IMG/VR virus record: IMGVR_UViG_2703718778_000012
Length of the DNA stretch: 25,112 nt
Origin: a virus
Lineage: Duplodnaviria; Heunggongvirae; Uroviricota; Caudoviricetes
Strand: one strand, 5' to 3'
The translations under genes and the position numbers were made by a program. The notes beneath the pieces are model-generated. The model saw only the letters and a list, made by a program, of their open reading frames with translations. It made no database searches and had not been told where the DNA came from. Positions 2,833-22,193 of the stretch are shown piece after piece; within the stretch, counting starts at the first letter, position 1, and every line of letters begins with the position of its first letter.

Positions 2833-3429
2833 TTAATTCGAGACTATTGTACTTCTTATACAAGCAACCACTTCAATATCAGAAAATGCACATTCAAAGC
2901 TATTCTCTGCTGTTGTAATTTTAATCATTCCTTTAGGAAGCCTTGTGATTTTTCGAATGGAATAGGTTCCGTCGATATTGATTAACCAGTTTCCATCAAG
3001 TACTTCAGAAAATTTTTGATCACAAATGTATGTGACGAGTCCATCCTGAACAACAATTGGTGATGAAAGGTTTGCAGGAAGAAATGATGAATCGAAGACA
3101 TATGAACCGTCTTCAATCATTTTGCCTGCGGCAAGGCGAAACTTAACAAGCTCTTCTGTAGCTGCTGTCAGCGAGCTTTGCTTAAGGCCTTGTCCGGTAG
3201 TTAACCATTTGAGGGAGGTTCCTGTTTCAAGAGCACATTGGATTATCCAGTCAGCAGGAAATGTATCCCGCAAATACCTGTTCGCTAGTGTGCTTTTTGA
3301 TACTTCCAAGTGATCAGCTAAAGCCTGTCGTGTCGTAAAGCCATAGGCTTCGACTAATCGCTCAATCGCAGCCTTACCACCTTTATTGGGATTTATTTTG
3401 ATCTCACTTGGGTACTTTGATGTTGACAT
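2833..3429 (-). CDS. cI: CI-type immunity repressor (phage 186 CI-like)
   Basis: 198 aa (186 CI is about 192 aa). N-terminal segment AYGF..RQALADHLEVSKSTLANRYLR......CALETGTSLKWLTTGQG resembles a 186 CI-type DNA-binding domain. Position between int and a divergent apl/cII operon matches P2/186 synteny. Confidence 0.75.
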   Translation of the reverse strand: MSTSKYPSEIKINPNKGGKAAIERLVEAYGFTTRQALADHLEVSKSTLANRYLRDTFPADWIIQCALETGTSLKWLTTGQGLKQSSLTAATEELVKFRLAAGKMIEDGSYVFDSSFLPANLSSPIVVQDGLVTYICDQKFSEVLDGNWLINIDGTYSIRKITRLPKGMIKITTAENSFECAFSDIEVVACIRSTIVSN

Positions 3430-4709: not shown

Positions 4710-5051
4710 ATGGCAATTAATGGCGCTGCAGCAACTGTTCCATTAAGCCCCGGTGAACGCCTGAATGGACTTAATCACATTGCGGAGTTAAGGGCGAAAG
4801 TTTTTGGCCTGAATATTGAGTCAGAGCTTGAGCGGTTTATTAAAGATATGCGTGATCCACGGGATATCAATAATGAACAAAATAAACGGGCACTGGCTGC
4901 CATATTCTTTATGGCAAAAATTCCAGCTGAACGTCATAGCATCAGCATTAATGAGCTGACCACTGACGAAAAGCGGGAGCTGATTAAAGCAATGAATCAT
5001 TTTCGTGCAGTGGTGAGCTTATTTCCCAGACGGCTAACCATGCCGAATTAA
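4710..5051 (+). CDS. Early-operon hypothetical protein
   Basis: 113-aa ORF in the co-directional early operon; GGGGGAT upstream of the ATG. Confidence 0.55.
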   Translation: MAINGAAATVPLSPGERLNGLNHIAELRAKVFGLNIESELERFIKDMRDPRDINNEQNKRALAAIFFMAKIPAERHSISINELTTDEKRELIKAMNHFRAVVSLFPRRLTMPN

Positions 5052-5118
5052 CCAACTAATGAAATTAATGGCGTAAACCCGCCGGGCATCCCTTTATCTA
5101 AATTCAGGAGAATTGATT

Positions 5119-5352
5119 ATGCGTAATATTGAAACCCTCACGACTAAAACCGGACCGGATGACGCAGGGCTTAATATTTTACTGACAGAGGCTCGTCTGG
5201 AAGAACGCCGGGCAAGGGCTGAAGCAATGGCTGCTCGCCTTGATAGCCTGGCGTGTCATATCTCATCCCGCCAGCTAAACCACGTGGAAGCGGCAGAACT
5301 GCTGCGCGTGACTGCTGAAGCAATCCAGAACGAAGCGCAGGAGATCCACTAA
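5119..5352 (+). CDS. Early-operon hypothetical protein
   Basis: 77 aa from the ATG at 5119 with CAGGAG 8 nt upstream. Stop overlaps the next start (TAATG). Confidence 0.55.
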   Translation: MRNIETLTTKTGPDDAGLNILLTEARLEERRARAEAMAARLDSLACHISSRQLNHVEAAELLRVTAEAIQNEAQEIH

Positions 5353-5579
5353 TGGCTGATGCAATGGATCTCGTACAGCAGCGCGTTGAAGAAGAACGCC
5401 AGCGCCATATCCGTGCAGCCCGTGCCAAATCACCGGGCGTGTCACGCGTACTTTGCATTGAATGTGAAGCGCCAATTCCGCCAGCACGACGCCGCGCCAT
5501 TCCGGGAGTGCAGCTTTGCATTACCTGTCAGGAAATCGCAGAACTGAAAGGCAAACATTACAACGGAGGTGCTGTATGA
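5352..5579 (+). CDS. TraR/DksA-family C4 zinc-finger protein
   Basis: 75 aa with CIECEAPIP-x(13)-CITCQE (Cys-x2-Cys ... Cys-x2-Cys) near the C-terminus, the arrangement of TraR-like proteins common in P2-like prophages. This is not the Ogr/B type of finger. Confidence 0.7.
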   Translation: MADAMDLVQQRVEEERQRHIRAARAKSPGVSRVLCIECEAPIPPARRRAIPGVQLCITCQEIAELKGKHYNGGAV

Positions 5580-6433
5580 GCACTATCCTGAAATGGGCGG
5601 GAAATAAAACCGCCATTATGCCAGAACTGAAAAAATACCTTCCTGCTGGCCCGCGACTGGTTGAACCTTTCGCGGGTTCCTGTGCTGTGATGATGGAAAC
5701 GGATTATCCCAGCTATCTGGTTGCGGATATTAATCCTGATTTAATCAACCTCTATAAAAAGGTTGCCGCTGATTGTGAATCGTTTATATCTCGCGCCAGA
5801 GTTTTATTTGAGATCGCAAACAGGGAGGTGGCTTATTACAACATAAGGCAGGAGTTTAACTGCTCAACAGAAATTACTGATTTCATGAAAGCGGTATATT
5901 TCCTGTATCTCAATCGTCACGGTTACCGTGGTTTATGTCGCTATAACAAGAGCGGGCATTTCAACATTCCCTACGGTAATTATAAAAATCCGTATTTCCC
6001 TGAAAAAGAAATTCGCGTATTTGCAGAAAAAGCCCAGCGGGCAACGTTTATCTGCGCCAGCTTTGATGAAACGCTGGCGATGTTGAAGGCGGGGGATGTG
6101 GTGTATTGCGATCCGCCGTATGACGGTACGTTTTCCGGCTATCACACTGACGGTTTCACTGAAGATGACCAGTATCACCTTGCGTCCGTTCTTGAACATC
6201 GGTCATCAGAAGGACATCCGGTCATTGTTTCTAACAGTGATACATCCCTGATCCGTTCGCTGTATCGCAATTTTACTCACCACTATATCAAGGTAAAACG
6301 CAGCATCGGTGTGGCAGCTGGCGAGGGTAAATCAGCAACAGAAATCATTGCTGTTTCCGGGCCGCGCTGCTGGGTGGGATTTGATTATTCGCGTGGCGTG
6401 GATAGTTCTGCCGTGTACGGAGTACGTGCATGA
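5576..6433 (+). CDS. dam: DNA adenine methyltransferase (Dam family, orphan)
   Basis: 285 aa. N-terminal ILKWAGNK...EPFAGSCAV (AdoMet-binding motif I) and CDPPYDG (motif IV, DPPY) are diagnostic of N6-adenine methyltransferases. Start overlaps the upstream stop (ATGA). No restriction partner is adjacent. Confidence 0.85.
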
Positions 6434-8844
6434 GTCATGCCGATATGAACAACTGCAGCGGCGTTAACGAGGTCGCCGCAGCATTCTCATGGAACAGTCC
6501 GAAAAAGGCTGTTAACCCTTATCTGGACCCGGCGGAAGTTGCGCCGGTTTCTGCGCTTTCAAACCTGATCACTCTGTACGCTGCCGATAACAAGCAGGAA
6601 CAACTGCGCCGCGAGGCACTGAGTGATCAGGTCTGGGAGCGTTATTTCTTTAATGAATCCCGTGATCCTGTCCAACGCGAAATGGAGCAGGATAAGCTCA
6701 TTAGCCGGGCAAAGCTGGCGCATGAGCAGCAGCGTTTTAATCCGGACATGGTCATACTGGCGGACGTTAACGCCCAGCCTTCCCATATCAGCAAGCCGCT
6801 GATGCAACGTATTGAATACTTCAGCAGCCTGGGCAGGCCAAAGGCTTATTCCCGCTATTTGCGTGAGACGATTAAGCCATGTCTGGAACGGCTGGAGCAT
6901 GTACGCGACAGTCAGCTATCCACTTCTTTTCGCTTTATGGCAAGCCATGAAGGGCTGGACGGCCTGCTGATTCTGCCTGAAATGAGTCAGGATCAGGTGA
7001 AACGCCTGTCCACCCTTGTTGCTGCGTATATGAGCATGTGCCTTGATGCAGCTTGTGGCGATTTGTATGCCACCGATGACGTTAAGCCAGAAGAAATCCG
7101 CAAGACATGGGAAAGGGGGGCGGCGGAAACCCTGCGTCTGGATGTCATTCCTCCTGCGTTTGAGCAACTCCGTCGGAAAAGAAACCGCCGTAAACCCGTG
7201 CCCTATGAACTCATTCCGGGTTCGCTGGCGCGTATGTTGTGCGCCGACTGGTGGTATCGGAAATTATGGAAGATGCGTTGCGAATGGCGGGAAGAGCAGT
7301 TGCGCGCTGTCTGCCTGGTCAGCAAAAAAGCATCTCCTTATGTCAGCTATGAAGCCGTGATGCATAAACGTGAGCAGCGCCGTAAGTCGCTGGAGTTTTT
7401 CCGTTCTCATGAACTGGTGAACGAAGACGGCGACACGCTGGACATGGAGGATGTGGTAAACGCCAGCAGCAGCAACCCGGCGCATCGCCGCAATGAGATG
7501 ATGGCCTGTGTTAAAGGTCTGGAGCTTATCGCGGAAATGCGCGGTGACTGCGCCGTTTTCTACACCATCACCTGTCCGTCACGTTTCCATTCCACGCTAA
7601 ATAACGGCAGGCCCAACCCAACCTGGACAAATGCGACGGTAAGACAAAGCAGTGATTATCTGGTCGGCATGTTTGCTGCATTTCGTAAGGCGATGCACAA
7701 AGCCGGATTGCGGTGGTATGGCGTGCGGGTGGCTGAGCCGCATCATGACGGTACAGTTCACTGGCACCTGTTGTGTTTTATGCGCAAAAAAGACCGCCGC
7801 ACCATCACTGCATTACTGCGTAAGTTTGCCATCCGTGAAGACCGCGAGGAGCTGGGCAATAACACTGGGCCGCGCTTTAAGTCTGAGTTGATTAACCCGC
7901 GCAAAGGTACGCCAACAAGCTACATCGCGAAATACATTAGTAAGAACATTGACGGGCGTGGTCTGGCTGGCGAGATCAGCAAGGAAACGGGGAAATCCCT
8001 GCGTGATAATGCTGAATACGTTAATGCCTGGGCGTCTCTGCATCGTGTTCAGCAATTCCGCTTCTTTGGCATTCCGGGGCGTCAGGCTTACCGTGAACTG
8101 CGATTGCTGGCTGGTCAGGCGGCAAGGCAACAGGGGGACAAAAAAGCAGGTGCGCCGGTACTGGATAACCCGCGCCTTGATGCCATTCTGGCTGCTGCTG
8201 ATGCTGGTTGTTTTGCCACCTACATCATGAAGCAGGGTGGCGTACTGGTTCCCCGCAAATATCACCTCATCAGAACTGCTTATGAAATCAACGAAGAGCC
8301 AACCGCCTATGGCGATCACGGCATTCGTATTTATGGCATCTGGTCACCTATTGCAGAGGGCAAGATCTGCACTCATGCCGTGAAGTGGAAAATGGTTCGT
8401 AAGGCCGTTGACGTTCAGGAGGCGGCAGCCGACCAGGGCGCTTGCGCCCCTTGGACTCGTGGCAATAACTGTCCCCTTGCTGAAAATTTGAACCAGCAGG
8501 AGAAAGATAAATCAGCTGATGGGGACACCAGAACGGACATTACCTGCATGGATGACAAGGAGTTGCACGATTATCTGCACAGTATGAGCAAAAAAGATCG
8601 CCGGGAACTGGCAGCAAGGTTACGCCTGGTGAAACCGAAACGGCGTAAAGACTACAAACAGCGAATTACAGACCATCAGCGACAGCAGCTTGTCTATGAA
8701 CTGAAGTCCAGAGGATTTGATGGCAGCGAGAAAGAGGTCGAGTTGCTCCTTCGCGGTGGCAGTATTCCGTCAGGAGCAGGCCTGCGTATCTTCTATCGGA
8801 ACCAGCGTCTGCAGGAGGATGATAAATGGCGGAACATGTATTAA
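6430..8844 (+). CDS. A: Replication initiation protein A (rolling-circle HUH endonuclease, P2 gpA family)
   Basis: 804 aa. HUH motif in VHWHLLCF and candidate catalytic tyrosine in YIAKYISK. Size and position after the early operon match P2/186 gene A. Start overlaps the dam stop. Confidence 0.9.
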
Positions 8845-8912
8845 TTACGCTGATTAACAATTCGTGCTCTTAATAATACCAGGCATATCAGGCTGATGAA
8901 CGTAAAAAAACG

Positions 8913-8954
8913 TTTTACATCAGTAAGATTATTATATACTGTAAATATAAACAG
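8913..8954 (+). promoter_or_regulatory. SOS promoter: TTTACA-N16-TATACT with an overlapping LexA box CTGTAAATATAAACAG
   Basis: CTGT-N8-ACAG at 8939-8954 matches the E. coli LexA consensus CTGTATATATATACAG at 14 of 16 positions and overlaps a sigma70-like -10 element; it lies about 45 nt upstream of the GGAGGA-ATG of the following ORF. Confidence 0.5.
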
Positions 8955-8997
8955 TGGTTATGTATACAGTATTGCTTGTGGTGTCATAGGAGGAAAA

Positions 8998-9186
8998 ATG
9001 CAGGACTATTTTTTGGAGTCTTTGAAGCTCCAGCGCATTGATTTTTTTCTTAAGCTTGTAGCGGCTAGTGAGTGTAGTGATGAAGAGAAGGGGCTGGCTT
9101 TGCAGTGGGTTTCTGAACTAACAGATGAACTCATGGCAAAAATCAGAACCCACGAATACAACCGCTCAATGGATGTCATCAGTTGA
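8998..9186 (+). CDS. Small SOS-induced protein (possible Tum-like antirepressor N-terminal part)
   Basis: 62 aa from the ATG at 8998, preceded by a strong GGAGGA Shine-Dalgarno. The ORF track's upstream extension to 8896 would read through the LexA box, so I discount it. Confidence 0.5.
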   Translation: MQDYFLESLKLQRIDFFLKLVAASECSDEEKGLALQWVSELTDELMAKIRTHEYNRSMDVIS

Positions 9187-9196
9187 GGTGACTTTT

Positions 9197-9430
9197 ATGC
9201 GCATTGAAATAATGATCGATAAAGAGCAGAAGATTAGCCAGTCTATCCTGGATGCCCTTGAATCCGAGCTTTACCGCAATCTGCGCCCCCTGTATCCAAA
9301 AACGGTAATTCGTATCCGCAAAGGTAGCTCTAACGGTGTGGAACTGACCGGACTGCAACTGGACGAAGAAAGAAAACAAGTGATGAAAATTATGCAGAAG
9401 GTGTGGGAAGACGACAGCTGGCTGCATTAG
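9197..9430 (+). CDS. DinI-family protein
   Basis: 77 aa. MRIEIMIDK...LDALESELYRNLRPLYP...VIRIRKGSSNGVELTG...KIMQKVWEDDSW parallels E. coli DinI (MRIEVTIAK...) in length and pattern. Confidence 0.7.
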   Translation: MRIEIMIDKEQKISQSILDALESELYRNLRPLYPKTVIRIRKGSSNGVELTGLQLDEERKQVMKIMQKVWEDDSWLH

Positions 9431-9558
9431 AGAACGTTGCGGATGATAAAACTAGCTTTTACCATCTGCAAGGCTGAACAACGATTGTAGCGAGGTGTTA
9501 GGTGGTTCAAAAGTAAAGCGGTTATTTTGCCCGTAAAAGTGAACCACCTGTATCTTGA

Positions 9559-10299
9559 TCAGTTTTCTTTGAATTTTTCACTTAATCGTTTCGTCAATAC
9601 TTCGACAGATTCTTTGCGACCGGAGAACAAGTCATTGACGACGTACTCCATAATCTCAAAAGCATCCTCAATGTCTTTGACTTTTACTTCATCGTAGGTA
9701 TGGCTTCCGGCATTTCCTAAAAATTTAATTGCCATAAGAGGTCTTGAAAACGATCCGTATAATTCAGGTAGCATCCCTAAACGGTGGTGTAGAGTTATGC
9801 GTTTGCCATTATCATTACGTTCAGCTACATCCATAGCGGTTAGCATTCTTTCAACTGAAATTCGAATTAGGTTTGCTGCTGCGCCAGGCTGTATTAGGAA
9901 AATGGAAAATGAGGCTTCAAGCGGTTCGGTAATTTCTTCTGGGCATTTTTCAGGTATTTCGAAAGGATGCAGTGATGGGTAAAAGGTGAAAGGTCTGTGC
10001 CATTGATAGTACTCAATATCATTTCTTTCTTCATCCCAACCTTGTTCCCATCCACTCTTACCAGTACAGGCCACAACTTCACCACATTGCATTCTTGAAC
10101 AGCGGGCCATGCAACTGAAAATAGATGAATCCATTTCTGGTTCAAACCAATCTTCACTGCGGAATTTTCGGGTATCATGTGTGTCATACGAGACGAAACT
10201 TTCTTTAATGATCTGTAGGGTTTTCTGATTGCAGTTAGGGCAGGGCCACTCAACCTGCATATCGTGGAAAAACGCACCAGAGAGCTTGTGCACAGTCAT
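9559..10299 (-). CDS. Hypothetical protein with N-terminal Cys-rich (zinc-ribbon-like) region and C-terminal alpha-helical domain (possibly DUF4145-like)
   Basis: 246-aa ORF, AT-rich relative to backbone. CPNCNQ ... CMARCSRMQCGEVVAC suggests a metal-binding module. The C-terminal half (AAANLIRISVERML...FLGNAGSH) is helical; the DUF4145 assignment is from memory only. Transcribed divergently from the HNH operon. Confidence 0.65.
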   Translation of the reverse strand: MTVHKLSGAFFHDMQVEWPCPNCNQKTLQIIKESFVSYDTHDTRKFRSEDWFEPEMDSSIFSCMARCSRMQCGEVVACTGKSGWEQGWDEERNDIEYYQWHRPFTFYPSLHPFEIPEKCPEEITEPLEASFSIFLIQPGAAANLIRISVERMLTAMDVAERNDNGKRITLHHRLGMLPELYGSFSRPLMAIKFLGNAGSHTYDEVKVKDIEDAFEIMEYVVNDLFSGRKESVEVLTKRLSEKFKEN

Positions 10300-10445
10300 T
10301 CTTTGTGTTCCTCATTTTTATGATTGGTAGGGATTGTATCTTCATACACGATTACAGTTGCATTAAAGATAAGCCATAGCAAGCTACTGGAAAAGAGACG
10401 AAACAGTTGGGCATATCAGATGTTTTTTCTTAAGGTAAGTTGTTG

Positions 10446-10546
10446 TGCATGCCTATACTGCATGAGATTGCATGATCGTTTGAGGATCGTTATTGCTAAG
10501 GCCCACCAGAACTGGCGGGCTTTTGCGTAGAGCATGCAGGTGCATG
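10446..10546. repeat. Cluster of five GCATG motifs, including the direct repeat TGCATGA-N3-TGCATGA
   Basis: TGCATG at 10446, 10459 and 10469; GCATGC at 10532; TGCATG at 10541. Lies between the 246-aa gene start and the cos-like sequence. Confidence 0.35.
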
Positions 10547-10569
10547 AAAACCACTACATAAAGCGGGCA

Positions 10570-10600
10570 GGCGTGGCGGGGATACGAGCGCGCGCTCACC
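10570..10600. other. cos: Candidate cos site (cohesive-end region)
   Basis: GGCGTGGCGGGGATACGAGCGCGCGCTCACC closely resembles the P2/186 cohesive-end region as I remember it (P2 GGCGAGGCGGGGAAAGCAC followed by TGCGCGCTGAC). Includes a perfect palindrome GAGCGCGCGCTC. This is a GC-rich island within AT-rich flanks. Confidence 0.5.
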
Positions 10601-10676
10601 ACAATTAGCAAGCTTGCTTATAGGGTTGTTCAGTAATAAATTAACATCCTAATTTCTATACTTTTAAGGTTAGTTC

Positions 10677-11372
10677 ATGGCTTGCAGTAGGGGAAAAGCT
10701 TCTCCAAACGCTAATACAGTTAGACGGCTTTTTGCCAGCTCAGGTGGCTTTTGCCAAAATCCACAATGCTTGCAACCTTTGTTTGTTGATGCTGGCGACA
10801 AAAATATAACAATTGGAGAACTTGCTCACATTTTTAGTGCCATTGATAATGGACCTAGAACCAATGCTGATCTAACTGATGAGCAGAGAGGTCATTTTGA
10901 CAACATTATTCTTCTATGTGCTAATTGCCATACGACAATTGATAAGGCAGAGGAACATTTTACTGATGAAATTATCCGTTCTTGGAAAAACGGCCATATT
11001 GATAAAATAAATGCAACCTTTGGTGTTAAAACATATGACAATCGAGAATCTGTTAGACAGGAGTTAGAAAAATACTTCAGAGAAAACAATACCATTTTTG
11101 TAACATATGGACCAACCCAAGAGAACAGCGTTGACCCTGAAAATCCAAATGCAGAAGTATGGTTAAGAAAAGTACAATCTCATATCTTACCCAACAATAG
11201 AAAAGTACAGCGACTGGTTGAACAAAACTATCACCTCATGAGTGAAGATGAGAAGAATGTTTTTTCAAAGCTTTGTGTTCATATAGATGACTTTGAATCA
11301 AAACATTTGGGCTTAACCGATGCTAATGGTAGTAGGTTTCCAGAAGCTGCATCTGAACTATTTATAGGATGA
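10677..11372 (+). CDS. HNH-family endonuclease
   Basis: 231 aa. GGFCQNPQC ... ELAHIFSAIDNGP ... DNIILLCANCHTTIDK contains the His / Asn / Cys-x2-Cys-His elements of an HNH beta-beta-alpha-metal fold. AT-rich. First gene of a three-gene operon with overlapping stop/start codons. Confidence 0.75.
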   Translation: MACSRGKASPNANTVRRLFASSGGFCQNPQCLQPLFVDAGDKNITIGELAHIFSAIDNGPRTNADLTDEQRGHFDNIILLCANCHTTIDKAEEHFTDEIIRSWKNGHIDKINATFGVKTYDNRESVRQELEKYFRENNTIFVTYGPTQENSVDPENPNAEVWLRKVQSHILPNNRKVQRLVEQNYHLMSEDEKNVFSKLCVHIDDFESKHLGLTDANGSRFPEAASELFIG

Positions 11373-12028
11373 ATCCAATGAGCATAAATGCGAGTGAAGG
11401 CTATATTTCATGGATGGCAGGAAAATTGCAAGAAAATAAATGTGTCGAAAATATAGAGGTGATAGGTGATGGTACTTTAGTGATTAATACTACACAGGGT
11501 GACACCTATTTGATCGGGGCAATCAATACTGGCCGGATAACATGTCCTGAGATAAATGAATACCTAGACAATAAAAAAATTGATTTTCTATCAGTCAAGG
11601 GAGGTGTTGAATTTATCTCTGGTGATGCAATGAGATTACTAGAACAAAAGAAAATAGGAGTGGGTTCATTTGGGCATATTGCATCTTCTTTAAGAGCTAA
11701 TAATCCGCTTGAGCATCTTGATAAAGAGCATTTGTTTATAAATAGAGTGTTCAATCAACATTCACATGTAAGCTCTGTAGAGCGAGAAACCAACAAAAAA
11801 TATAGACTTAAAAGACGTGGCTTGGCGGACTTAGTTATTATCGCTGCGAATGATTATGATATGACAGCGGGTTCTGTAAGAGATGCGATAGGGTTGCATG
11901 GCAATTGTGATGTTGTTTTTTCCTCCAATCCTAATGGACGATTGACGACTCAGGCAAAAGAGGCTGCTCAAAGTATCGGGGTGGAGCTTTACAAGTTGGG
12001 TGATTTATTACGAAGAATTTCACGGTAG
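11369..12028 (+). CDS. Hypothetical protein (middle gene of HNH/NTase operon)
   Basis: 219-aa ORF whose start overlaps the HNH stop (ATGA). No motif I can assign with confidence; contains RVFNQH (R-x4-H), which is weakly reminiscent of a HEPN motif. Confidence 0.65.
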   Translation: MNPMSINASEGYISWMAGKLQENKCVENIEVIGDGTLVINTTQGDTYLIGAINTGRITCPEINEYLDNKKIDFLSVKGGVEFISGDAMRLLEQKKIGVGSFGHIASSLRANNPLEHLDKEHLFINRVFNQHSHVSSVERETNKKYRLKRRGLADLVIIAANDYDMTAGSVRDAIGLHGNCDVVFSSNPNGRLTTQAKEAAQSIGVELYKLGDLLRRISR

Positions 12029-12345
12029 TGAATTTTAAACATACGATTGAATCGATCTGTGATGTTATTATCCATCATAGTTTATATATGGTGGATGTAT
12101 ATGTATTTGGGTCAGCATTAAAGAGTTTTTGCGATGCAAATGATATTGATATGCTTGTGATAGGTGATTGTGTCGATGGTTTATTATTGAAGCGAAAGCT
12201 GCGGGAGCTTGATTTATTTGTTCCTGTTCATATTATTACAATGACGCATTCAGAAGAGTATGAACTGGGATTTATTAAGTCAGTTGGCACTTCTCTGCTT
12301 GTTGTTGATAAAAGCGTTAAGATCAATTTTGTATGTGGTATATAA
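12028..12345 (+). CDS. Minimal nucleotidyltransferase (Pol-beta superfamily, MNT-like)
   Basis: 105 aa. VYVFGSALKSFCDANDIDMLVIGD fits the GS-x(9-13)-DxD signature of minimal nucleotidyltransferases. Probable GTG start overlapping the upstream stop (TAGTG); an internal ATG is an alternative start. Confidence 0.6.
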   Translation: MNFKHTIESICDVIIHHSLYMVDVYVFGSALKSFCDANDIDMLVIGDCVDGLLLKRKLRELDLFVPVHIITMTHSEEYELGFIKSVGTSLLVVDKSVKINFVCGI

Positions 12346-12397: not shown

Positions 12398-13426
12398 TTA
12401 CAAGGAGTAATCTTGGAATTTTATTACGTCATCATGTAGCCAATTGTTCACCTCTCTAATTCGTTGTTGAAGAGGCTTTAATTCATTACGTACAAAAACC
12501 GTGGATGCCTTCTCCACATCCCCAAACCCGCCAACATTATTCGGCATGATACCCATCATTTGCGGAGGCACGCGGTGTGCCGCCATCATGTCATCCCGGC
12601 TCACGTTCTTGATGTTCAGAAATTCATCCTTTGCCGCGACTTCTGACAACGGGATAATCTGAAGACCATCCTTTTTGCCGTTAGGTGAGTACATAAACAG
12701 GTTGCGGAAGTTGCCTGGACCTTTGGCGCTTTTCATTGCGTTGCGGAGGTTGTTCACATCCTCCTGGTTCTGCGCAGCATCGGTCATGTACATGATGAAG
12801 CCAGCATGACTGCCGTTAATGTAATACTTTCGGCGGAACAGCGTGGCGGACTCGTTGAGCAGGGCTGACGGAATGGCAGAAAGATAACCGGGCAGGCCGT
12901 AGATCTCCTGGTTGATGTCCGGTTCCATCAGATGAAAGATGCTGCCTTTCGTGAACTGATATGGCTGCGTGGTCATACCGTATTGCACAAACCAGTAGGT
13001 ATCCAGGTCTAACCCGCGTCGGGTGTATTTTGCCAGGGCAGGTTCAAGGGCGATAACTTCACCGAAGCGGTTCGTGCGTTTCTCCAGGTAGGCGTTACCA
13101 AATACCAGATAGTCCTGCACAAAACGCGAAAAAGCCTGCTGGCTGAGCAGCGGGTGAGGGATGTAGGTGCTGGTCAGAATGTTGCACTTTACTGCAATCG
13201 GGGAACTATGATGCACGGCAGCGCGGAAGGTGCGCGCCAGTCCGTCAAAGCTGACGGGCGGCTCATACCAGCGGTCCATCTGTACGCATTCCACATAATC
13301 CAGCAGTTCTCGGCGGTCCAGAACAGGAACGGGATCGCCGAAGCTGAATGCTTCGGCTGTAGTTTGACTTTTAAGCTGGATCTGTTTCGTCGCCGCAGTG
13401 CGGTTCTTCTTACTCTTTCCCATCAA
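12398..13426 (-). CDS. Q: Portal protein (P2 gpQ family)
   Basis: 342 aa. Extended similarity to my recollection of P2 gpQ (GDPVPVLDRREL..., YLVFGNAYLE..., LNESATLFRRKYY.NG.HAG.IMY.TDA, IPLSEVAAKD.F.NIK, FVRNEL.PLQ.RIRE.N.WL). Start overlaps the P stop. Confidence 0.9.
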   Translation of the reverse strand: MMGKSKKNRTAATKQIQLKSQTTAEAFSFGDPVPVLDRRELLDYVECVQMDRWYEPPVSFDGLARTFRAAVHHSSPIAVKCNILTSTYIPHPLLSQQAFSRFVQDYLVFGNAYLEKRTNRFGEVIALEPALAKYTRRGLDLDTYWFVQYGMTTQPYQFTKGSIFHLMEPDINQEIYGLPGYLSAIPSALLNESATLFRRKYYINGSHAGFIMYMTDAAQNQEDVNNLRNAMKSAKGPGNFRNLFMYSPNGKKDGLQIIPLSEVAAKDEFLNIKNVSRDDMMAAHRVPPQMMGIMPNNVGGFGDVEKASTVFVRNELKPLQQRIREVNNWLHDDVIKFQDYSL

Positions 13427-15189
13427 AAAATCTCCACAATATTGCTGGTATTGGCGGATTCGCCCTGCAGCGGTTCGTTAAACAGTGCGTGCATCGTTGC
13501 CCAGGCCAGATCGGCGTGGCTGGCTTCTTCGCTGCGGCTGGCTTCATAGGTCGGGCGGTTGCCACTGGCGGTGGTGGCGCGACGGATTGCCATAAAGGAC
13601 TGCGCTATGTCGGTGTGTCCGGCGTCAAACTCCAGACGGCGGTGGCTGATAATGTCGTAGGCCTTGAGTACCAGGGCGTTTTTAACGTTGGGGTTGTAGA
13701 CAAACTCCCGGACGGCAGGAAAAAACGCTTTCACGTTCTCGTAAACCCCGTGACCAACGCCGGTTGAGTCGATACCGATATAGGTCACGTTGTACTGTTC
13801 GGTCAGTTTTTTGATGGCGTCAGCCTGGGCGCGGAAGTCCATCCCGCGCCACTGGTGACGCTCAAGAATGCGAAACTTACCGCCTGGCACGGCTGGCGGT
13901 GCCACCACCACGCATCCGGCGCTGTCGCCGTTCTGCGTACCTTTTGCCGGGTCATAACCGATCCACACCTCGCGCCAGCCAAACGGGCGCAGGGCCAGTG
14001 CATGAAAGTCGGTCCAGACTTCCCAACTGTCCACCATGCACGCCTGCAGTTCGCTGAGCGGGAACACGGACGCGAGATCGTCCACGAACTCGCACATCAG
14101 CAGGTTCTGGTATTCGTCCGGGCTGTACTCCATGCGTAGCTGGTCGAGGTCGAACAGGTTACAGCCGCCGCGCACCGCATCTTCCACGGTGACTATCTGG
14201 CGGTATTGCCCGTCTGCGCACAGCAAGCCGGGGGCCAGATTGTTGTGGGACAGGTCGATGTCCACCTTATCGGCTTTGTTGCGCCCACGGTTAAACAGCG
14301 CACCGGACCAGAACGGATAAGCACTGTGTGTCAGGCTGGATGGCGTGGAAAAATAGGTTTGTCGCCATTTTTTGTGAATAGCCATACCGGAAGCCACTTT
14401 GCGCAGCTCCTGGAATTTCGGTATCCAGAAATATTCATCCAGATACAGGTTGCCGTGGTAACTCTGGGCCGTGCGGGCATTGGTGCCGAGGAAGTACAGC
14501 GTGGCCCCGTTAGGAAGCACCATCGGATCGCCTTTCAGCTCCACCTCCACTTCTTTGGCGAAGTCGATGATGTACTGCTTAAAGACGTGGGCCTGAGCCT
14601 TGCTGGCGGAAAGGAAAATCTGATTACGCCCGGTTAGCAGGGCGTCAATCAGGGCTTCACGGGCAAAATAGAAGGTCGCGCCGATCTGGCGTGACTTCAG
14701 CAGGTTGCGGATGCGGTTGGTTTTTCCGGCTTCCCACCAGTGGCGCTGGTAGTTGAACATGGAGGAATGGAAGATTTCTTCCAGCTTCTCAATCTGTTCA
14801 TCGGTGAAAACGTTCTTTTCCGGCTGACGGCGCGGGCCTTTGTTGCGGTTGGCGACGTTAGGGTTTAAGTCGGCTTCGTTGCCGCCATTGTTAAACTTGC
14901 CGATCCGCGCATGGCGCTCCGACTGGCGCGCCAGCAGGTCAATCTCTTTGAAATCTTTCCCTTCTTTGTGCTCCTTCATAATGAGCTGGCAGTAGCGTGC
15001 GGCGGTGGTGAGCTGCATCTGATCCAGCGGCCCATAGTCACCCCACTTGTCGCGTTTTTTCCAGCTGTGAACGGTTGCAACTTTCTCGCCCAGCATTTCA
15101 GCAATGCGGGCTACGCGGTATCCCTGAAAGTACAGCAGCATGGCCTGCCGACGGGGATCGAGATCTGCGGGTGTCAGTGTGGTGTTCAT
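13423..15189 (-). CDS. P: Terminase large subunit (P2 gpP family)
   Basis: 588 aa (P2 gpP is about 590). Location and orientation upstream of Q, divergent from O, match P2 synteny. Confidence 0.9.
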   Translation of the reverse strand: MNTTLTPADLDPRRQAMLLYFQGYRVARIAEMLGEKVATVHSWKKRDKWGDYGPLDQMQLTTAARYCQLIMKEHKEGKDFKEIDLLARQSERHARIGKFNNGGNEADLNPNVANRNKGPRRQPEKNVFTDEQIEKLEEIFHSSMFNYQRHWWEAGKTNRIRNLLKSRQIGATFYFAREALIDALLTGRNQIFLSASKAQAHVFKQYIIDFAKEVEVELKGDPMVLPNGATLYFLGTNARTAQSYHGNLYLDEYFWIPKFQELRKVASGMAIHKKWRQTYFSTPSSLTHSAYPFWSGALFNRGRNKADKVDIDLSHNNLAPGLLCADGQYRQIVTVEDAVRGGCNLFDLDQLRMEYSPDEYQNLLMCEFVDDLASVFPLSELQACMVDSWEVWTDFHALALRPFGWREVWIGYDPAKGTQNGDSAGCVVVAPPAVPGGKFRILERHQWRGMDFRAQADAIKKLTEQYNVTYIGIDSTGVGHGVYENVKAFFPAVREFVYNPNVKNALVLKAYDIISHRRLEFDAGHTDIAQSFMAIRRATTASGNRPTYEASRSEEASHADLAWATMHALFNEPLQGESANTSNIVEIF

Positions 15190-15331: not shown

Positions 15332-16165
15332 ATGACAGTGAAAGCAAAGCGTTTTCGCATCGGTGTGGAAGGTGCCACCACCGACGGACGCGAAATCCAG
15401 CGTGAATGGTTGGAACAGATGGCAGCCAGCTACAACCCGGCGGTGTATACCGCGCTGATTAACCTTGAGCACATCAAGTCTTATCTGCCGGACAGCACCT
15501 TTAACCGCTACGGCAAGGTGACGGCGCTGTTTGCTGAAGAAATCACGGAAGGTCCGCTGGCAGGCAAGATGGCGCTGTATGCCGACGTTGAGCCAACGGA
15601 GTCCCTGGTGGAACTGGTGAAAAAAGGCCAGAAATTATTCACCTCTATGGAAGTCAGCCCGAAGTTCGCTGATACGGGCAAAGCCTACCTGGTCGGCCTG
15701 GCTGCCACTGATGACCCTGCCAGTCTGGGTACGGAAATGCTGACATTCAGCGCCAGTGCAGCCCATAACCCGCTGGCAAACCGCAAGCAGAATCCTGCCA
15801 ATCTCTTTACCGCTGCAGAGGAAACGGTGATCGAACTGGAAGAAATCCAGGACGACAAACCGTCCCTGTTTGCCCGCGTCACGGCGCTGTTTACCAAAAA
15901 AGAGCAGTCCGATGACGCCCGGTTCTCTGATGTGCATAAGGCCGTGGAGCTGGTCGCCACTGAGCAGCAGAACCTGAGCGCACACACCGAAAAATCCCTG
16001 TCTGAGCAGGAAGAACGCCTGTCTGAGCTGGAGACTGCCCTGCAGGCACAGCAGACCGCCTTTAACGAACTGGTGGACAAGCTGAGTCATGAAGACAGCC
16101 GCCAGGACTACCGCCAGCGTGCAACAGGCAGTAACGCCCCCGCTGACACTCTGACCAATTGCTGA
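15332..16165 (+). CDS. O: Capsid scaffolding protein (P2 gpO family)
   Basis: 277 aa. KRFRIGVEGATTDGREI...INLEHIK...YTSMEVSPKFADTGKAYLVGLAATDDPASLGTEML... parallels P2 gpO. AACGGAG Shine-Dalgarno upstream. Confidence 0.9.
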   Translation: MTVKAKRFRIGVEGATTDGREIQREWLEQMAASYNPAVYTALINLEHIKSYLPDSTFNRYGKVTALFAEEITEGPLAGKMALYADVEPTESLVELVKKGQKLFTSMEVSPKFADTGKAYLVGLAATDDPASLGTEMLTFSASAAHNPLANRKQNPANLFTAAEETVIELEEIQDDKPSLFARVTALFTKKEQSDDARFSDVHKAVELVATEQQNLSAHTEKSLSEQEERLSELETALQAQQTAFNELVDKLSHEDSRQDYRQRATGSNAPADTLTNC

Positions 16166-18660: not shown

Positions 18661-18876
18661 ATGACGCTTGAGCGAATCAGCGCCTTTATCACGTATTGCA
18701 TCGCCGTCGTGCTGGCCTGGCTGGGCGATTTGTCCATCAAGGATGCCTCAACGCTGGGCGGCCTGATGATTGGTGTGCTGATGCTGGCTATCAACTGGTA
18801 CTACAAACACAAAGCCTACCAGCTTCTGCGCGACGGGCAGATCTCGCGGGAGGACTATGAATCCATCAATCGTTAA
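18661..18876 (+). CDS. Holin (two-TM, pinholin-like)
   Basis: 71 aa with two hydrophobic helices (ITYCIAVVLAWLG; LGGLMIGVLMLAINWYY) and a charged C-terminal tail. Sits immediately upstream of and overlapping the endolysin gene. Confidence 0.6.
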   Translation: MTLERISAFITYCIAVVLAWLGDLSIKDASTLGGLMIGVLMLAINWYYKHKAYQLLRDGQISREDYESINR

Positions 18877-19930: not shown

Positions 19931-20324
19931 AGCGGTGCCTTATGTCCGCAATAACCCGGACAAACTGCATCTGTTTGTGGATAACGGTTCGCTGGTTGCC
20001 ACGGGGGCCAGCTCCATGTCATGGGAGTACCGTTACACCCTGAACGTGGTGATTGAGGATTTCAGCGGCGACCAGAATCTGCTGATGGCCCCGGTTTTGC
20101 TGTGGCTGAGGGATAACCAGCCCGATGCTATCAATAACCTGGCGTTACGGGAAAAGCTATTCACCTTTGAGGTGGATATTCTGCGCAACGATGTCTGTGA
20201 TATCAGCCTGAACCTGCAACTGACGGAGCGTGTGCTGGTCAGCACTGACGGCAGTGTGTCGAGCGTTGAAGCTGTAGCGGAACCTGATGCACCTGAAGAA
20301 ATGTGGACGGTGAAACGTGGCTGA
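19893..20324 (+). CDS. R: Tail completion protein R (P2 gpR family)
   Basis: GTG at 19893 preceded by AGGAG (7-nt spacer). VNKPQSLRHAL...NPDKLHLFVDNGS...RYTLNVVIEDFSGD..LL.APVLLWLRDNQPD parallels P2 gpR. Confidence 0.85.
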   Translation: MNKPQSLRHALNKAVPYVRNNPDKLHLFVDNGSLVATGASSMSWEYRYTLNVVIEDFSGDQNLLMAPVLLWLRDNQPDAINNLALREKLFTFEVDILRNDVCDISLNLQLTERVLVSTDGSVSSVEAVAEPDAPEEMWTVKRG

Positions 20325-20763
20325 ACTGCAGAAGGTGGACGACTGGCTGAGTGCCTTGCTGGCGAATCTGGAACCAGCCACGAGAAGCCGCATGATGCGC
20401 CAGCTGGCGCAGGAACTGCGCCGGACACAGCAGCAGAATATCAGGATGCAGCGCAATCCAGATGGCAGCAGTTATGAACCGCGCAGGGTAACAGCACGTA
20501 GCAAGAAGGGGCGCATCAAACGTCAGATGTTTGCAAAGCTGCGCACCACCAAATACCTGAAAACCGCCGCCAGCGCCGACTCTGCCTGCGTACAGTTTGA
20601 AAGTAAGGTGCAGCGCATTGCCCGCGTTCACCATTATGGCCTGCGCGATCGCGTCAGCCGCAAAGGACCGGAAGTGCGTTACGCAGAGCGTCGTTTGTTG
20701 GGTCTTAATGGTGAGTCTTACGTTCTAACTCTTGATATATTGAATAGATTCCTTCTGTCTTGA
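20317..20763 (+). CDS. S: Tail completion protein S (P2 gpS family)
   Basis: 148 aa. ...LAQELRRTQQQNIRMQRNPDGSSYEPRRVTARSKKGRIKRQMF...VQRIARVHHYGLRD.VSR.GPEVRY parallels P2 gpS. GTG start overlaps the R stop. The last roughly 18 codons are AT-rich and overlap the convergent cargo gene. Confidence 0.85.
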   Translation: MAELQKVDDWLSALLANLEPATRSRMMRQLAQELRRTQQQNIRMQRNPDGSSYEPRRVTARSKKGRIKRQMFAKLRTTKYLKTAASADSACVQFESKVQRIARVHHYGLRDRVSRKGPEVRYAERRLLGLNGESYVLTLDILNRFLLS

Positions 20764-21511
20764 ATTCACCATATGCCCAATGAATTGCATTTTTTTGTTC
20801 AGTCAGAATATATTTCCTAACTTTTTTAGAATAGTGAATGGTCAGTATAAAACCCAAAGAAATCCATAATAGAATAAATATGGTTGTTGGGGCAAAGGAA
20901 TAGATAAAGAATTTGTCTTTAACGAAATTCTTGACTTCTTCATCAATGTAAGCATTCCCTTCATCAGTGGTTAGTAGTTTACAAAGAATTTCTTTATGTT
21001 CGATAGTTAATGATTTGTACTTCTCTGTACTGGCAGAGGATGACTCTTCGCAATCATCCTTTGATATTTCCCAATCAGGAGTGGTTAATATTGTAGCTGC
21101 AGTCGCCAGTTTTTTTGACATATAAAATGATTCACCGGACTTTATCCAATAAAGCAATGTGCTATTTGGTGGGGTTCTAATGGCTTGGATGAAAACTGGA
21201 CCAAAAATATAAATTGCATACAAAAAAAGAAGTGAAAAGAGAACCGTGATTGATTTTTCAGCCCATGTGATAGTAGGCAGCCTTTTTAATGATATTCGTA
21301 TAAGAAAAAAATTTAATATAAACGCAGGTATTCCTGATTTTTTCAAAATTACATCATGAGATTTTCTATATTTGAATAGTGCTCTTATAACTATCGTCAC
21401 CAAAGTTATAACAGCTCCAATAATGGAAATCCATGCGGCAAGTGCCGCTGCCGGGGTGTTTAAAAATTCAGCATTAAATATATTAGAACTTATTGGATTC
21501 ATAACACTCAT
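20705..21511 (-). CDS. Multi-pass membrane protein (cargo gene, unknown function)
   Basis: 268-aa ORF, strongly AT-rich. At least three hydrophobic helices (AALAAWISIIGAVITLVTIVI; SITVLFSLLFLYAIYIFGPVFI; FIYSFAPTTIFILLWISLGFILTI) flank a roughly 80-aa charged soluble segment. GGTGG Shine-Dalgarno 4 nt before the ATG. Inserted between S and V, antisense to the late operon. Confidence 0.7.
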   Translation of the reverse strand: MSVMNPISSNIFNAEFLNTPAAALAAWISIIGAVITLVTIVIRALFKYRKSHDVILKKSGIPAFILNFFLIRISLKRLPTITWAEKSITVLFSLLFLYAIYIFGPVFIQAIRTPPNSTLLYWIKSGESFYMSKKLATAATILTTPDWEISKDDCEESSSASTEKYKSLTIEHKEILCKLLTTDEGNAYIDEEVKNFVKDKFFIYSFAPTTIFILLWISLGFILTIHYSKKVRKYILTEQKNAIHWAYGEFKTEGIYSIYQELERKTHH

Positions 21512-21550
21512 TTATCCACCTATTGGTTGTTTTTTATCCTTTTATCAATT

Positions 21551-21568
21551 TGTACCATCGATACCACA
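21551..21568. promoter_or_regulatory. Candidate late-activator (Ogr/B-type) binding site TGT-N12-ACA upstream of V
   Basis: TGTACCATCGATACCACA fits TGT-N12-ACA and is centred about 55 nt upstream of the V ATG. Confidence 0.4.
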
Positions 21569-21614
21569 ATTTGCAAGAAGTTATAAACAAGTTTTCAGCT
21601 GTCATCATATATCT

Positions 21615-22193
21615 ATGAACGCACAACTAACCGAAATCATGCGCCTTATCACCAATCTGATCCGCATAGGTGTAGTCACCGAAGTGGACCGGGAAAACTG
21701 GCTTTGTCGGGTGAAAACGGGCGACCTTGAAACCAACTGGATTAACTGGCTGACGCTGCGCGCGGGTAATGCCCGCACATGGTGGCGACCATCGGAAGGT
21801 GAGCAGGTGGTGCTGCTGAGTCTGGGCGGCAATCTGGAAACCGCCTTTGCGTTACCCGCCATCTATTCGAATCAGTTCGCGCCACCGTCGACGTCGGCGG
21901 ACGCCTGCGTGACAGAACATCCTGACGGTGGCTGGTTTGAATACGAACCCGCCACCGGGCGCTGGTATGTCAGGGGCATCAAATCAATGGTCATTGAGGC
22001 CGCTGACAACATCACCATGAAAACCAGTGAGTTTGTACTGGAGGCTGACCGCACGCGCATTAACAGCGAAGTGGTGATCAATGGTGGTATTACCCAGGGC
22101 GGCGGAGCGATGAGTTCTAACGGGATCGTGGTTGATGCGCATCAGCATACTGGCGTCCTGAAAGGCGGCGATACAACTGGAGGCCCGGTATGA
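21615..22193 (+). CDS. V: Baseplate spike / assembly protein V (P2 gpV family)
   Basis: From the ATG at 21615: MNAQLTEIMRLITNLIRIGVVTEVD...WINWLTLRAGNARTWWRPSEGEQVVLLS.GG.LETAF.LP.IYS parallels P2 gpV. The ORF track's extension upstream to 21372 runs through the promoter region and is discounted. Confidence 0.85.
   Translation: MNAQLTEIMRLITNLIRIGVVTEVDRENWLCRVKTGDLETNWINWLTLRAGNARTWWRPSEGEQVVLLSLGGNLETAFALPAIYSNQFAPPSTSADACVTEHPDGGWFEYEPATGRWYVRGIKSMVIEAADNITMKTSEFVLEADRTRINSEVVINGGITQGGGAMSSNGIVVDAHQHTGVLKGGDTTGGPV

Follow-up and report, generated by a model that had tools for sequence, protein, structure and literature searches.

The stretch of DNA analysed here (the window; 25,112 nucleotides of IMG/VR record IMGVR_UViG_2703718778_000012) is a P2-like prophage in which integrase, CI, A, portal, terminase, capsid and lysis genes are followed by R, S, V, W, J and I. 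Between its late genes S and V it carries what, judged from the sequence, is an exchangeable accessory ("moron") cassette in the slot known from P2 as orf30, encoding a membrane protein of the Pfam family DUF6216 (PF19723). Our main new result is that this gene survives with its putative promoter where the prophage around it has decayed, either alone or among remnants of V, S and R. Because the gene is repeatedly intact while the surrounding late region has been lost, it points to a benefit to the host and not to a service to the virion, and we estimate the probability that it encodes a host-beneficial accessory membrane protein at roughly 0.9. There is about an even chance that this benefit consists in the exclusion of other phages or in defence against them. 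Since the gene is already annotated as a DUF and its slot is known for horizontal transfer, we regard the feature as a prophage moron and not as a new category.

The isolated phages most closely related to the window prophage are Elveevirus phages of Klebsiella and E. coli. The features of the locus on which the argument depends are the following.

20317-20763, plus strand: gene S (tail completion/virion morphogenesis), 148 amino acids (aa), matching PF05069 with E 4.1e-38 over residues 3-146.
20705-21511, minus strand: the DUF6216-family gene (PF19723), 268 aa, ATG start, a predicted three-pass inner-membrane protein similar to WP_000115390.
21615-22193, plus strand: gene V (baseplate spike), 192 aa, matching PF04717 with E 6.9e-18 and an Apex motif with E 6.7e-6.
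~20706-21614, both strands: the whole exchangeable cassette, comprising the 3' end of S, the DUF6216 gene, its putative promoter and an AT-rich version of the V promoter region, with breakpoints taken from alignments with phages 4LV2017 and Cartapus and from the GC profile.

E. coli RM10466 and STEC17-183 have copies identical in DNA. In E. coli B, BL21(DE3), C41 and ATCC 11303 the defective P2-like prophage has a copy with 99.6% identical DNA (98.9% identical protein, WP_000115390.1), and the gene is, by inference, present in other E. coli B derivatives. The B-strain copy occupies the same position between S and V, and the prophage itself lies between rcdA and ybjL. To follow the fate of the gene elsewhere, core phage proteins and the BL21 flanking genes were placed on the loci of its homologs. 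Where the late region is intact, with K through I all in the fetched flanks, the gene sits in the S-V slot; this is the case in an E. coli locus (L003) and in a Buttiauxella metagenome-assembled genome (MAG; L014), whose protein is 47% identical to the window protein and whose S and V are 84-86% identical. Seven loci have the gene between ybjL and rcdA/ybjJ, at the site and in the relative orientation seen in the E. coli B prophage.

Citrobacter youngae, ybjL-rcdA site: only fragments of V, S and R are left.
Enterobacteriaceae MAG, ybjL-rcdA site: an ogr fragment is left.
C. sedlakii (L012), gene at ~8001-8795, within ~1.5 kb between ybjL and rcdA: only a short trace of the S tail is left.
Scandinavium (L004/L013), ybjL-rcdA site: V fragments, a CI-like gene and an AAA ATPase are left.
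Franconibacter (L015), gene at ~6001-6732, ybjL-rcdA site: the gene stands alone, 35% identical, with a GC content of 0.45.
Cedecea (L022), gene at ~5001-5825, ybjL-rcdA site: no other recognisable phage gene.
Metagenome contig (L024), gene at ~5001-5741, ybjL-rcdA site: no other recognisable phage gene.

All 24 source-named members of the Franconibacter cluster come from F. pulveris, F. daqui or another Franconibacter species, and the GC content of this copy, 0.45 where E. coli prophages have 0.33, suggests that it has long been resident and has undergone amelioration. In Klebsiella aerogenes P0030 and in the 19%-identical P0060 the gene adjoins truncated V, S and R, and in P0060 it still overlaps the S remnant. 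The decayed loci also bear the mark of purifying selection: the ratio of nonsynonymous to synonymous substitution rates (dN/dS) is 0.20 between L010 and L011 and 0.18 between L012 and L013.

Two of the decayed prophages have retained other genes as well. In Scandinavium (L004/L013, ~4836-9849) a GIY-YIG protein, a CI-like repressor and a 662-aa AAA_15/AAA_21 ATPase lie beside the DUF6216 gene, a set that may be a second retained module of defence type. The BL21 prophage (L008) has lost most of its capsid, tail-sheath and replication genes and kept R, S, DUF6216, V, W, J, I and the fibre genes; its A-portal hotspot (12791-14839) holds an effector of the retron St85 family and a reverse transcriptase.

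The slot between S and V is not always filled. In Klebsiella phage 4LV2017 the S-V gap is 68 bp long and holds no open reading frame (ORF), and the slot is empty also in other Klebsiella and E. coli phages. Our survey of the slot covered complete E. coli genomes, 1055 of which have the S..V region of this lineage, and its occupancy was estimated from evenly sampled rows. About 108 of the 1055 (~10%) carry the DUF6216 gene; the slot is empty in roughly half of the sampled rows (a span of 1718 bp, compared with 2501 bp), and among rows matching both flanks about one in three has other cargo. We opened four of the alternative occupants in E. coli prophages, and all four are single antisense genes.

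L017, 973-1899, antisense: a DUF2971 protein, matching PADLOC PDC-S31.
L018, 838-1773, antisense: an FRG-domain protein, PADLOC PDC-S15.
L019, 1011-2300, antisense: a 429-aa protein, PADLOC PDC-S59 (E 1.7e-197).
L020, 969-1664, antisense: a second DUF6216 protein of 231 aa, 24% identical to the window protein.

Phage Cartapus has an unrelated 176-aa antisense ORF in the slot, and phage R18C is reported to have a 741-bp ORF there (PMC6823313). In P2 the slot holds the nonessential antisense gene orf30 (protein NP_046770, 261 aa), exactly at the S-V junction where the preliminary description had placed it, with the activator site of the V promoter (pV) just beyond its start. The same description had taken the junction for a cargo slot, and the empty slots of 4LV2017 and of about half of the sampled prophages, together with the unrelated single antisense genes found elsewhere, bear this out. 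It had also named conservation in all relatives as a virion part as what would refute it, and the gene is not conserved in this way. The gene is accessory and dispensable for the phage. Passages in PMC3091744 (citing Nilsson 2004) and PMC6823313 note the orf30 locus as a site of horizontal acquisition. The sections on hotspots in three surveys of P2 (Rousset et al. 2022, PMC9122126; Vassallo et al. 2022, PMC9519451; a 2026 paper in NAR, PMC13586616) name the gpA-portal, Z/fun/tail, int-att and int-gpA positions, and those sections make no mention of the S-V junction. The cassette resembles these defence hotspots and the other P2 accessory loci (old, tin and Z/fun) in that AT-rich, horizontally exchanged cargo occupies a fixed position between core genes and turns over among close relatives.

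In windows of 300 nucleotides, GC content is 0.55-0.59 in the flanks, falls to 0.31-0.37 over 20700-21600 and returns to 0.55 at 21600; for the DUF6216 ORF it is 0.33. The gene is antisense to both flanking late genes and converges on S. S is ~89% identical to its 4LV2017 counterpart as far as ~residue 130, and V is 96% identical to that of 4LV2017. Alignment with this empty-slot phage places the left breakpoint inside S, at ~20703-20712, and the right one at the start codon of V. Read from these alignments, ~909 bp in the window substitutes for ~127 bp in empty-slot relatives, so that the feature is a replacement cassette and not a simple insertion; it supplies its own 3' end of S and an AT-rich variant of the sequence that leads from a conserved dyad, described below, to V. 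A repeat search for insertion scars and att-like repeats at the cassette ends returned only short matches at chance level, and exchange by homologous recombination in the flanking S and V genes is a likelier origin than transposition. The preliminary description had thus been accurate about a convergent, 268-aa multi-pass membrane protein of low GC content (0.33 compared with 0.55-0.59) between S and V; every element that it described is found at the coordinates it gave, and its account of an insertion is refined here to one of a replacement.

The DUF6216 ORF is a real gene under purifying selection. It matches the Pfam model with 44.6 bits, compared with a gathering cutoff of 27.3 (E 1.5e-11), residues 73-237 aligning to profile positions 115-265 of 270. 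The family includes the window protein by this score but has no assigned function, so that membership names the protein and does not explain it. Its homologs form 32 clusters at 90% identity, and all 31 full-length clusters carry PF19723; at 50% identity there are 49 representatives among 1.84 billion proteins. All homologs with a named source organism are from Enterobacterales, and full-length homologs down to 18-19% identity keep the layout of three transmembrane (TM) segments and two cysteines that is described below. Values of dN/dS (Nei-Gojobori) lie between 0.14 and 0.33 for pairs with dS of 0.34-2. Isolated phages yielded no homolog in a tblastn search of 50,697 records with the window protein and two distant family members as queries. 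Nothing significant was found in NCBIfam or BFVD, and a sequence-profile search of the PDB gave no match.

Signals upstream of the gene are conserved along with it. We aligned the 150 nucleotides upstream of the gene from nine loci, including Franconibacter and loci where the gene is the lone survivor, and recognised three elements.

21549-21576, minus strand: putative sigma-70 promoter, with -35 TTGCAA (21576-21571), a 16-nt spacer and extended -10 TGgTACAAA (TG 21557-21556, -10 21554-21549), recognised by conservation across loci.
21516-21520, minus strand: Shine-Dalgarno sequence GGTGG, 4 nt before the ATG; GGAGG or GGTGG in most aligned loci.
21551-21568, plus strand: TGT-N12-ACA dyad, the putative Ogr-type activator site of the late promoter of V, which aligns with a conserved dyad upstream of V in 4LV2017 and Cartapus.

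The promoter columns TCTTG..A and TG.TA.AA are invariant in nine of nine aligned loci, including the 35%-identical Franconibacter gene. Scans with strict consensus patterns found no promoter upstream of the ORF and no terminator anywhere in 20300-21900. The dyad lies between the start of the gene (21511) and that of V (21615), where a late-promoter element for V had been predicted, and overlaps the -10 and the spacer of the antisense DUF6216 promoter. The bare pattern TGT-N12-ACA occurs in the window at chance frequency (6 matches, 6.4 expected), and the meaning of the dyad therefore rests on its position and conservation. Two of the other matches (15178 and 15236) fall in the divergent region between a minus-strand gene (13423-15189) and a plus-strand gene (15332-16165), which is where P2 late promoters are expected. 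In the nine-locus alignment the TGT half-site of the dyad is lost wherever V is gone, while the bases of the DUF6216 promoter stay. The -35 TTGCAA (21571-21576) is its own reverse complement and lies 3 nt from the dyad, so that RNA polymerase could use these 28 bp in both orientations.

At its left end the cassette is coupled to S by a shared coding sequence.

20705-20763, both strands: dual-coding overlap of 59 nt at the left end of the cassette, GC content 0.32, in which the last 19 codons and stop of S are antisense to the last 19 codons and stop of the DUF6216 gene.

The C-terminus of S is NGESYVLTLDILNRFLLS in the window and NDDVEAMTRDIILQWLAG in the empty-slot phage 4LV2017. This AT-rich, recoded tail, which had been described from the sequence as overlapped by the antisense gene and as still gpS-like, indeed retains the gpS pattern, and the Pfam S model aligns as far as residue 146 of 148. 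The same overlap with S is seen in L003, L014, L005 and the distant L023. Where S is intact, synonymous divergence is depressed in the overlap, as expected from dual coding (pS 0.27 between the window and L014, compared with 0.47-0.79 in the other six regions). The overlapping C-terminal peptide of the DUF6216 protein is conserved also where S is gone (L011, L012 and L013), and the peptide must therefore matter to the DUF6216 protein too. It is an addition of the close subfamily, whose C-terminal extension of ~22 aa overlaps S, whereas distant DUF6216 members end at about aa 246.

The protein was described at the outset as multi-pass, and its hydropathy peaks (residues 24-42, 90-108 and 207-225) and the three long helices of its AlphaFold model agree. 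The model (predicted local distance difference test, pLDDT, 78.7) has helices at 20-46, 83-112 and 183-245 and a four-stranded sheet at 118-150 that is followed by short helices. All parts of the protein are encoded on the minus strand.

21374-21451, minus strand: TM1, ~aa 21-46; the N-terminal peptide before it (aa 1-20, NIFNAEFLNxP) is conserved and uncharged, with F12, E15, F16 and P20 invariant.
21257-21373, minus strand: basic loop, aa 47-85, predicted cytoplasmic, with the motif LKKxGxPxFxLNxF...LxxLP and dN/dS of 0.05-0.22, among the most conserved regions.
21176-21256, minus strand: TM2, ~aa 86-112, with hydropathy peak 90-108 and helix 83-112.
20912-21175, minus strand: predicted periplasmic domain, aa 113-200, four short beta strands and helices, with F129, C154 (21050-21052) and C177 (20981-20983).
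20834-20911, minus strand: TM3, ~aa 201-226, with hydropathy peak 207-225 within helix 183-245.
20708-20833, minus strand: basic amphipathic C-terminal tail, aa 227-268, predicted cytoplasmic, its last ~22 aa (GEFKxEGIYxIYQELER) found only in the close subfamily.

Charged residues are distributed over these parts as follows.

N-terminal 20 residues: K/R 0, D/E 1.
Loop 47-85: K/R 8, D/E 2.
Tail 227-268: K/R 8, D/E 5.
Residues 110-202: K/R 12, D/E 16.

By the positive-inside rule, this distribution of lysine and arginine predicts an N-out/C-in topology that places residues 113-200 in the periplasm. In an alignment of 32 family members that reaches down to 18% identity, F129, C154 and C177 alone are invariant; two invariant cysteines in a predicted periplasmic domain probably form a disulfide. 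The 13 members examined have two or three hydropathy peaks at matching positions, TM1 being below threshold in two of them. Divergence along the protein is uneven. When the window allele is compared with that of L014, identity is 26-32% in TM2, the periplasmic domain (32%) and TM3 and 59-70% in the termini, and the N-terminus, TM1, the cytoplasmic loop and the proximal C-terminal tail are conserved (dN/dS 0.04-0.28). This pattern is a possible signature of an arms race. As a separate matter, identity as a holin was considered and rejected: the match to Phage_holin_2_3 (PF16080) scores 14.5 bits, compared with a cutoff of 28.8 (E 0.037), and covers TM1 only, and the prophage has its own holin upstream (18661-18876).

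The nearest counterpart among named phage proteins is Orf30 of P2. Its gene resembles the window gene in occupying the S-V slot, in being antisense and of similar length and in having an Ogr-type site just beyond its start, and the protein likewise has three hydropathy peaks at comparable positions and an invariant cysteine pair. AlphaFold models, that of Orf30 being taken from a 98%-identical relative (pLDDT 72), share one order of elements: TM1, a helical loop, TM2, four beta strands, a short helix with the first cysteine, a helix with the second and the long TM3 helix. On the other hand, orf30 does not overlap S and has a terminator annotated between itself and S, and its product does not match PF19723. 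Direct comparisons gave a BLASTP E value of 0.63 and an hhalign E value of 0.002 at 14% probability over 71 columns, aligning the cysteine pair and TM3. Membership of the window protein in the Orf30 family was not assigned, as its hidden Markov model (HMM) score of 3.6 bits was reached by 113 of 1000 shuffled window sequences (11%) and is no better than such controls. Orf30 is a positional and architectural counterpart, and homology between the two is plausible but unproven.

T4 Imm, P22 SieA and HK97 gp15 are phage-encoded inner-membrane proteins of superinfection exclusion that have no enzymatic domain and are dispensable for the phage. The prophage-borne SieA and gp15 are made by the lysogen and counter incoming DNA at the inner membrane. 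By analogy, the mode of action of these three proteins would be that of the DUF6216 protein. Searches of PHROG, Pfam, PDB and BFVD revealed no similarity in sequence or fold between it and characterised exclusion proteins, and it differs from Imm, SieA and gp15 in being larger (268 aa) and in having a sizeable predicted periplasmic domain.

The preliminary description had suggested a factor of superinfection exclusion or abortive infection, a hypothesis that gains indirect support from the PADLOC defence candidates among the slot-mates, from the persistence of the gene in decayed prophages and from its fast-evolving periplasmic domain. We favour exclusion at the step of DNA entry because the variable part of the protein is predicted to face outward, the gene has no partner and both its slot-mates and the neighbouring hotspots are of defence type. 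In the lysogen, host sigma-70 RNA polymerase would transcribe the gene; during late lytic growth, Ogr bound to the dyad within the promoter, together with antisense late transcripts, would shut it down. The variable periplasmic domain would engage either an entry factor in the inner membrane of the host or a component of the incoming phage (its tail tip or proteins that it ejects), with the conserved cytoplasmic parts serving as anchor or signal. The DNA would thereby be kept from entering, which amounts to superinfection exclusion.

Several observations weigh against an anti-phage role. The protein matched none of the defence families of PADLOC-DB v2 at E values up to 1 and had no significant match in PHROGs, and the literature searched has no relevant mention of DUF6216, of the protein accession or of the BL21 locus tag. 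The slot-mates assigned to PADLOC PDC families are defence candidates only. The putative DUF6216 promoter is a moderate match to the consensus, one that the strict scan missed, and the AT-rich cassette may be a plausible target of H-NS silencing. dN/dS is no greater than 1 in all comparisons, so that positive selection is not demonstrated and the fast regions could be merely less constrained. Finally, fixation throughout the genus Franconibacter as a lone gene is as compatible with a general physiological role as with defence.

This last point leads to the explanation that competes best with exclusion, namely a factor of host physiology or of the envelope unrelated to phage, acting in envelope homeostasis, in tolerance of stress or antimicrobials, in colonisation or in immunity to a membrane-acting bacteriocin or effector, and domesticated for that purpose. 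The lone chromosomal gene at ybjL-rcdA, fixed in Franconibacter (24 cluster members), Cedecea and others with no defence genes adjoining, is what such a factor would look like, and purifying selection and the lack of similarity to any defence family fit as well. We nevertheless think this somewhat unlikely, as cargo in the same slot matches defence-candidate families and the other variable loci of the prophage carry defence systems. Moreover, two distant homologs belong to other mobile elements: in Serratia marcescens (L021, 5001-10741) a DUF6216 gene with 27% identity immediately precedes a GAAD/GASH/DO-GTPase1/2/GAP1-N1 conflict cluster, in an island that also has AlpA, the CbtA toxin and DUF932, and another distant member lies in a MobA/TraD island of Pectobacterium that also carries a SIR2 gene. 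In addition, the divergence of the periplasmic part far outpaces that of the flanking genes, as would not usually be seen in an envelope factor with a housekeeping role.

An abortive-infection effector that senses infection, permeabilises or depolarises the inner membrane in the manner of RexB and kills the infected cell is in our judgement rather improbable. A prophage-encoded multi-pass membrane protein without an enzymatic domain would suit such a role, its conserved cytoplasmic loop and tail could receive a signal, and TM1 has the weak, sub-threshold holin resemblance (E 0.037) mentioned above. However, that resemblance is confined to one TM helix, the gene is single with no partner sensor in any locus, and the variable, cysteine-stapled part is predicted to be periplasmic, which suits the recognition of something from outside.

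A function in the lytic cycle of the phage itself (lysis timing, assembly of tail or baseplate, or help with injection of its own DNA) could be read from the position of the gene inside the late morphogenetic region, between tail-completion and baseplate genes, and from its coupling to S through the overlap and to the promoter of V. Such a function is very improbable and already largely refuted: the gene runs against both late operons and has a sigma-70-like promoter of its own, it is missing from viable isolated relatives and from most related prophages, and it remains intact, with purifying selection still acting on it, in loci whose S, V and R have been lost or have become pseudogenes. That the ORF is spurious, a product of an AT-rich spacer or insertion scar, we dismiss, because although long ORFs arise readily in AT-rich DNA and the gene is without a known function, the curated Pfam match, remote full-length homologs of the same layout, dN/dS well below 1 and the conserved Shine-Dalgarno sequence and promoter have already refuted it.

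A broader proposal, which we put forward tentatively and consider doubtful as a whole, is that DUF6216 and P2 Orf30 make up one ancient, fast-diverging superfamily native to the S-V slot. Its members would be single-gene sentinels facing the periplasm that block DNA entry, or trigger defence, on meeting a foreign tail tip or ejected protein; they would have been domesticated with their promoter at ybjL-rcdA in several genera of Enterobacterales, and the promoter interleaved with the Ogr site would act as an off switch during the late development of their own phage.

The window prophage has further variable loci. Between the integrase (1-1053) and a CI-like repressor (2833-3429), a 558-aa ORF (1136-2812, minus strand) with DUF4041 and T5orf172/MUG113 domains matches PADLOC PD-Lambda-1 (E 3.6e-120); by this match, the prophage carries a defence gene of validated type at its integrase-side variable site. 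The A-portal variable region (9559-12345) has several cargo genes, among them one for a DUF4145 protein (9559-10299, minus strand) with a weak match to PD-T7-4 (E 2e-5), one for an HNH-type nuclease-like protein (10677-11372) matching PDC-M68A (E 2e-29) and two ORFs assigned to no family (11369-12028 and 12028-12345). At 9125-9430 there is a DinI-like gene.

P2-like prophages are a major reservoir of anti-phage genes in E. coli, and the S-V junction is a genuine single-gene cargo slot whose occupants include three PADLOC defence-candidate families. That DUF6216 is repeatedly the last gene left as a prophage decays is a strong sign of benefit to the host. The presence of the gene in E. coli B strains makes deletion or transfer experiments with standard phage panels simple, and the result could show what a DUF family does, and what P2 Orf30 does as well should it be a relative. 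The gene might explain part of the differences in phage sensitivity between E. coli B and K-12. If its phenotype should prove not to be anti-phage, the gene would still be a clean case of the domestication of a prophage gene.

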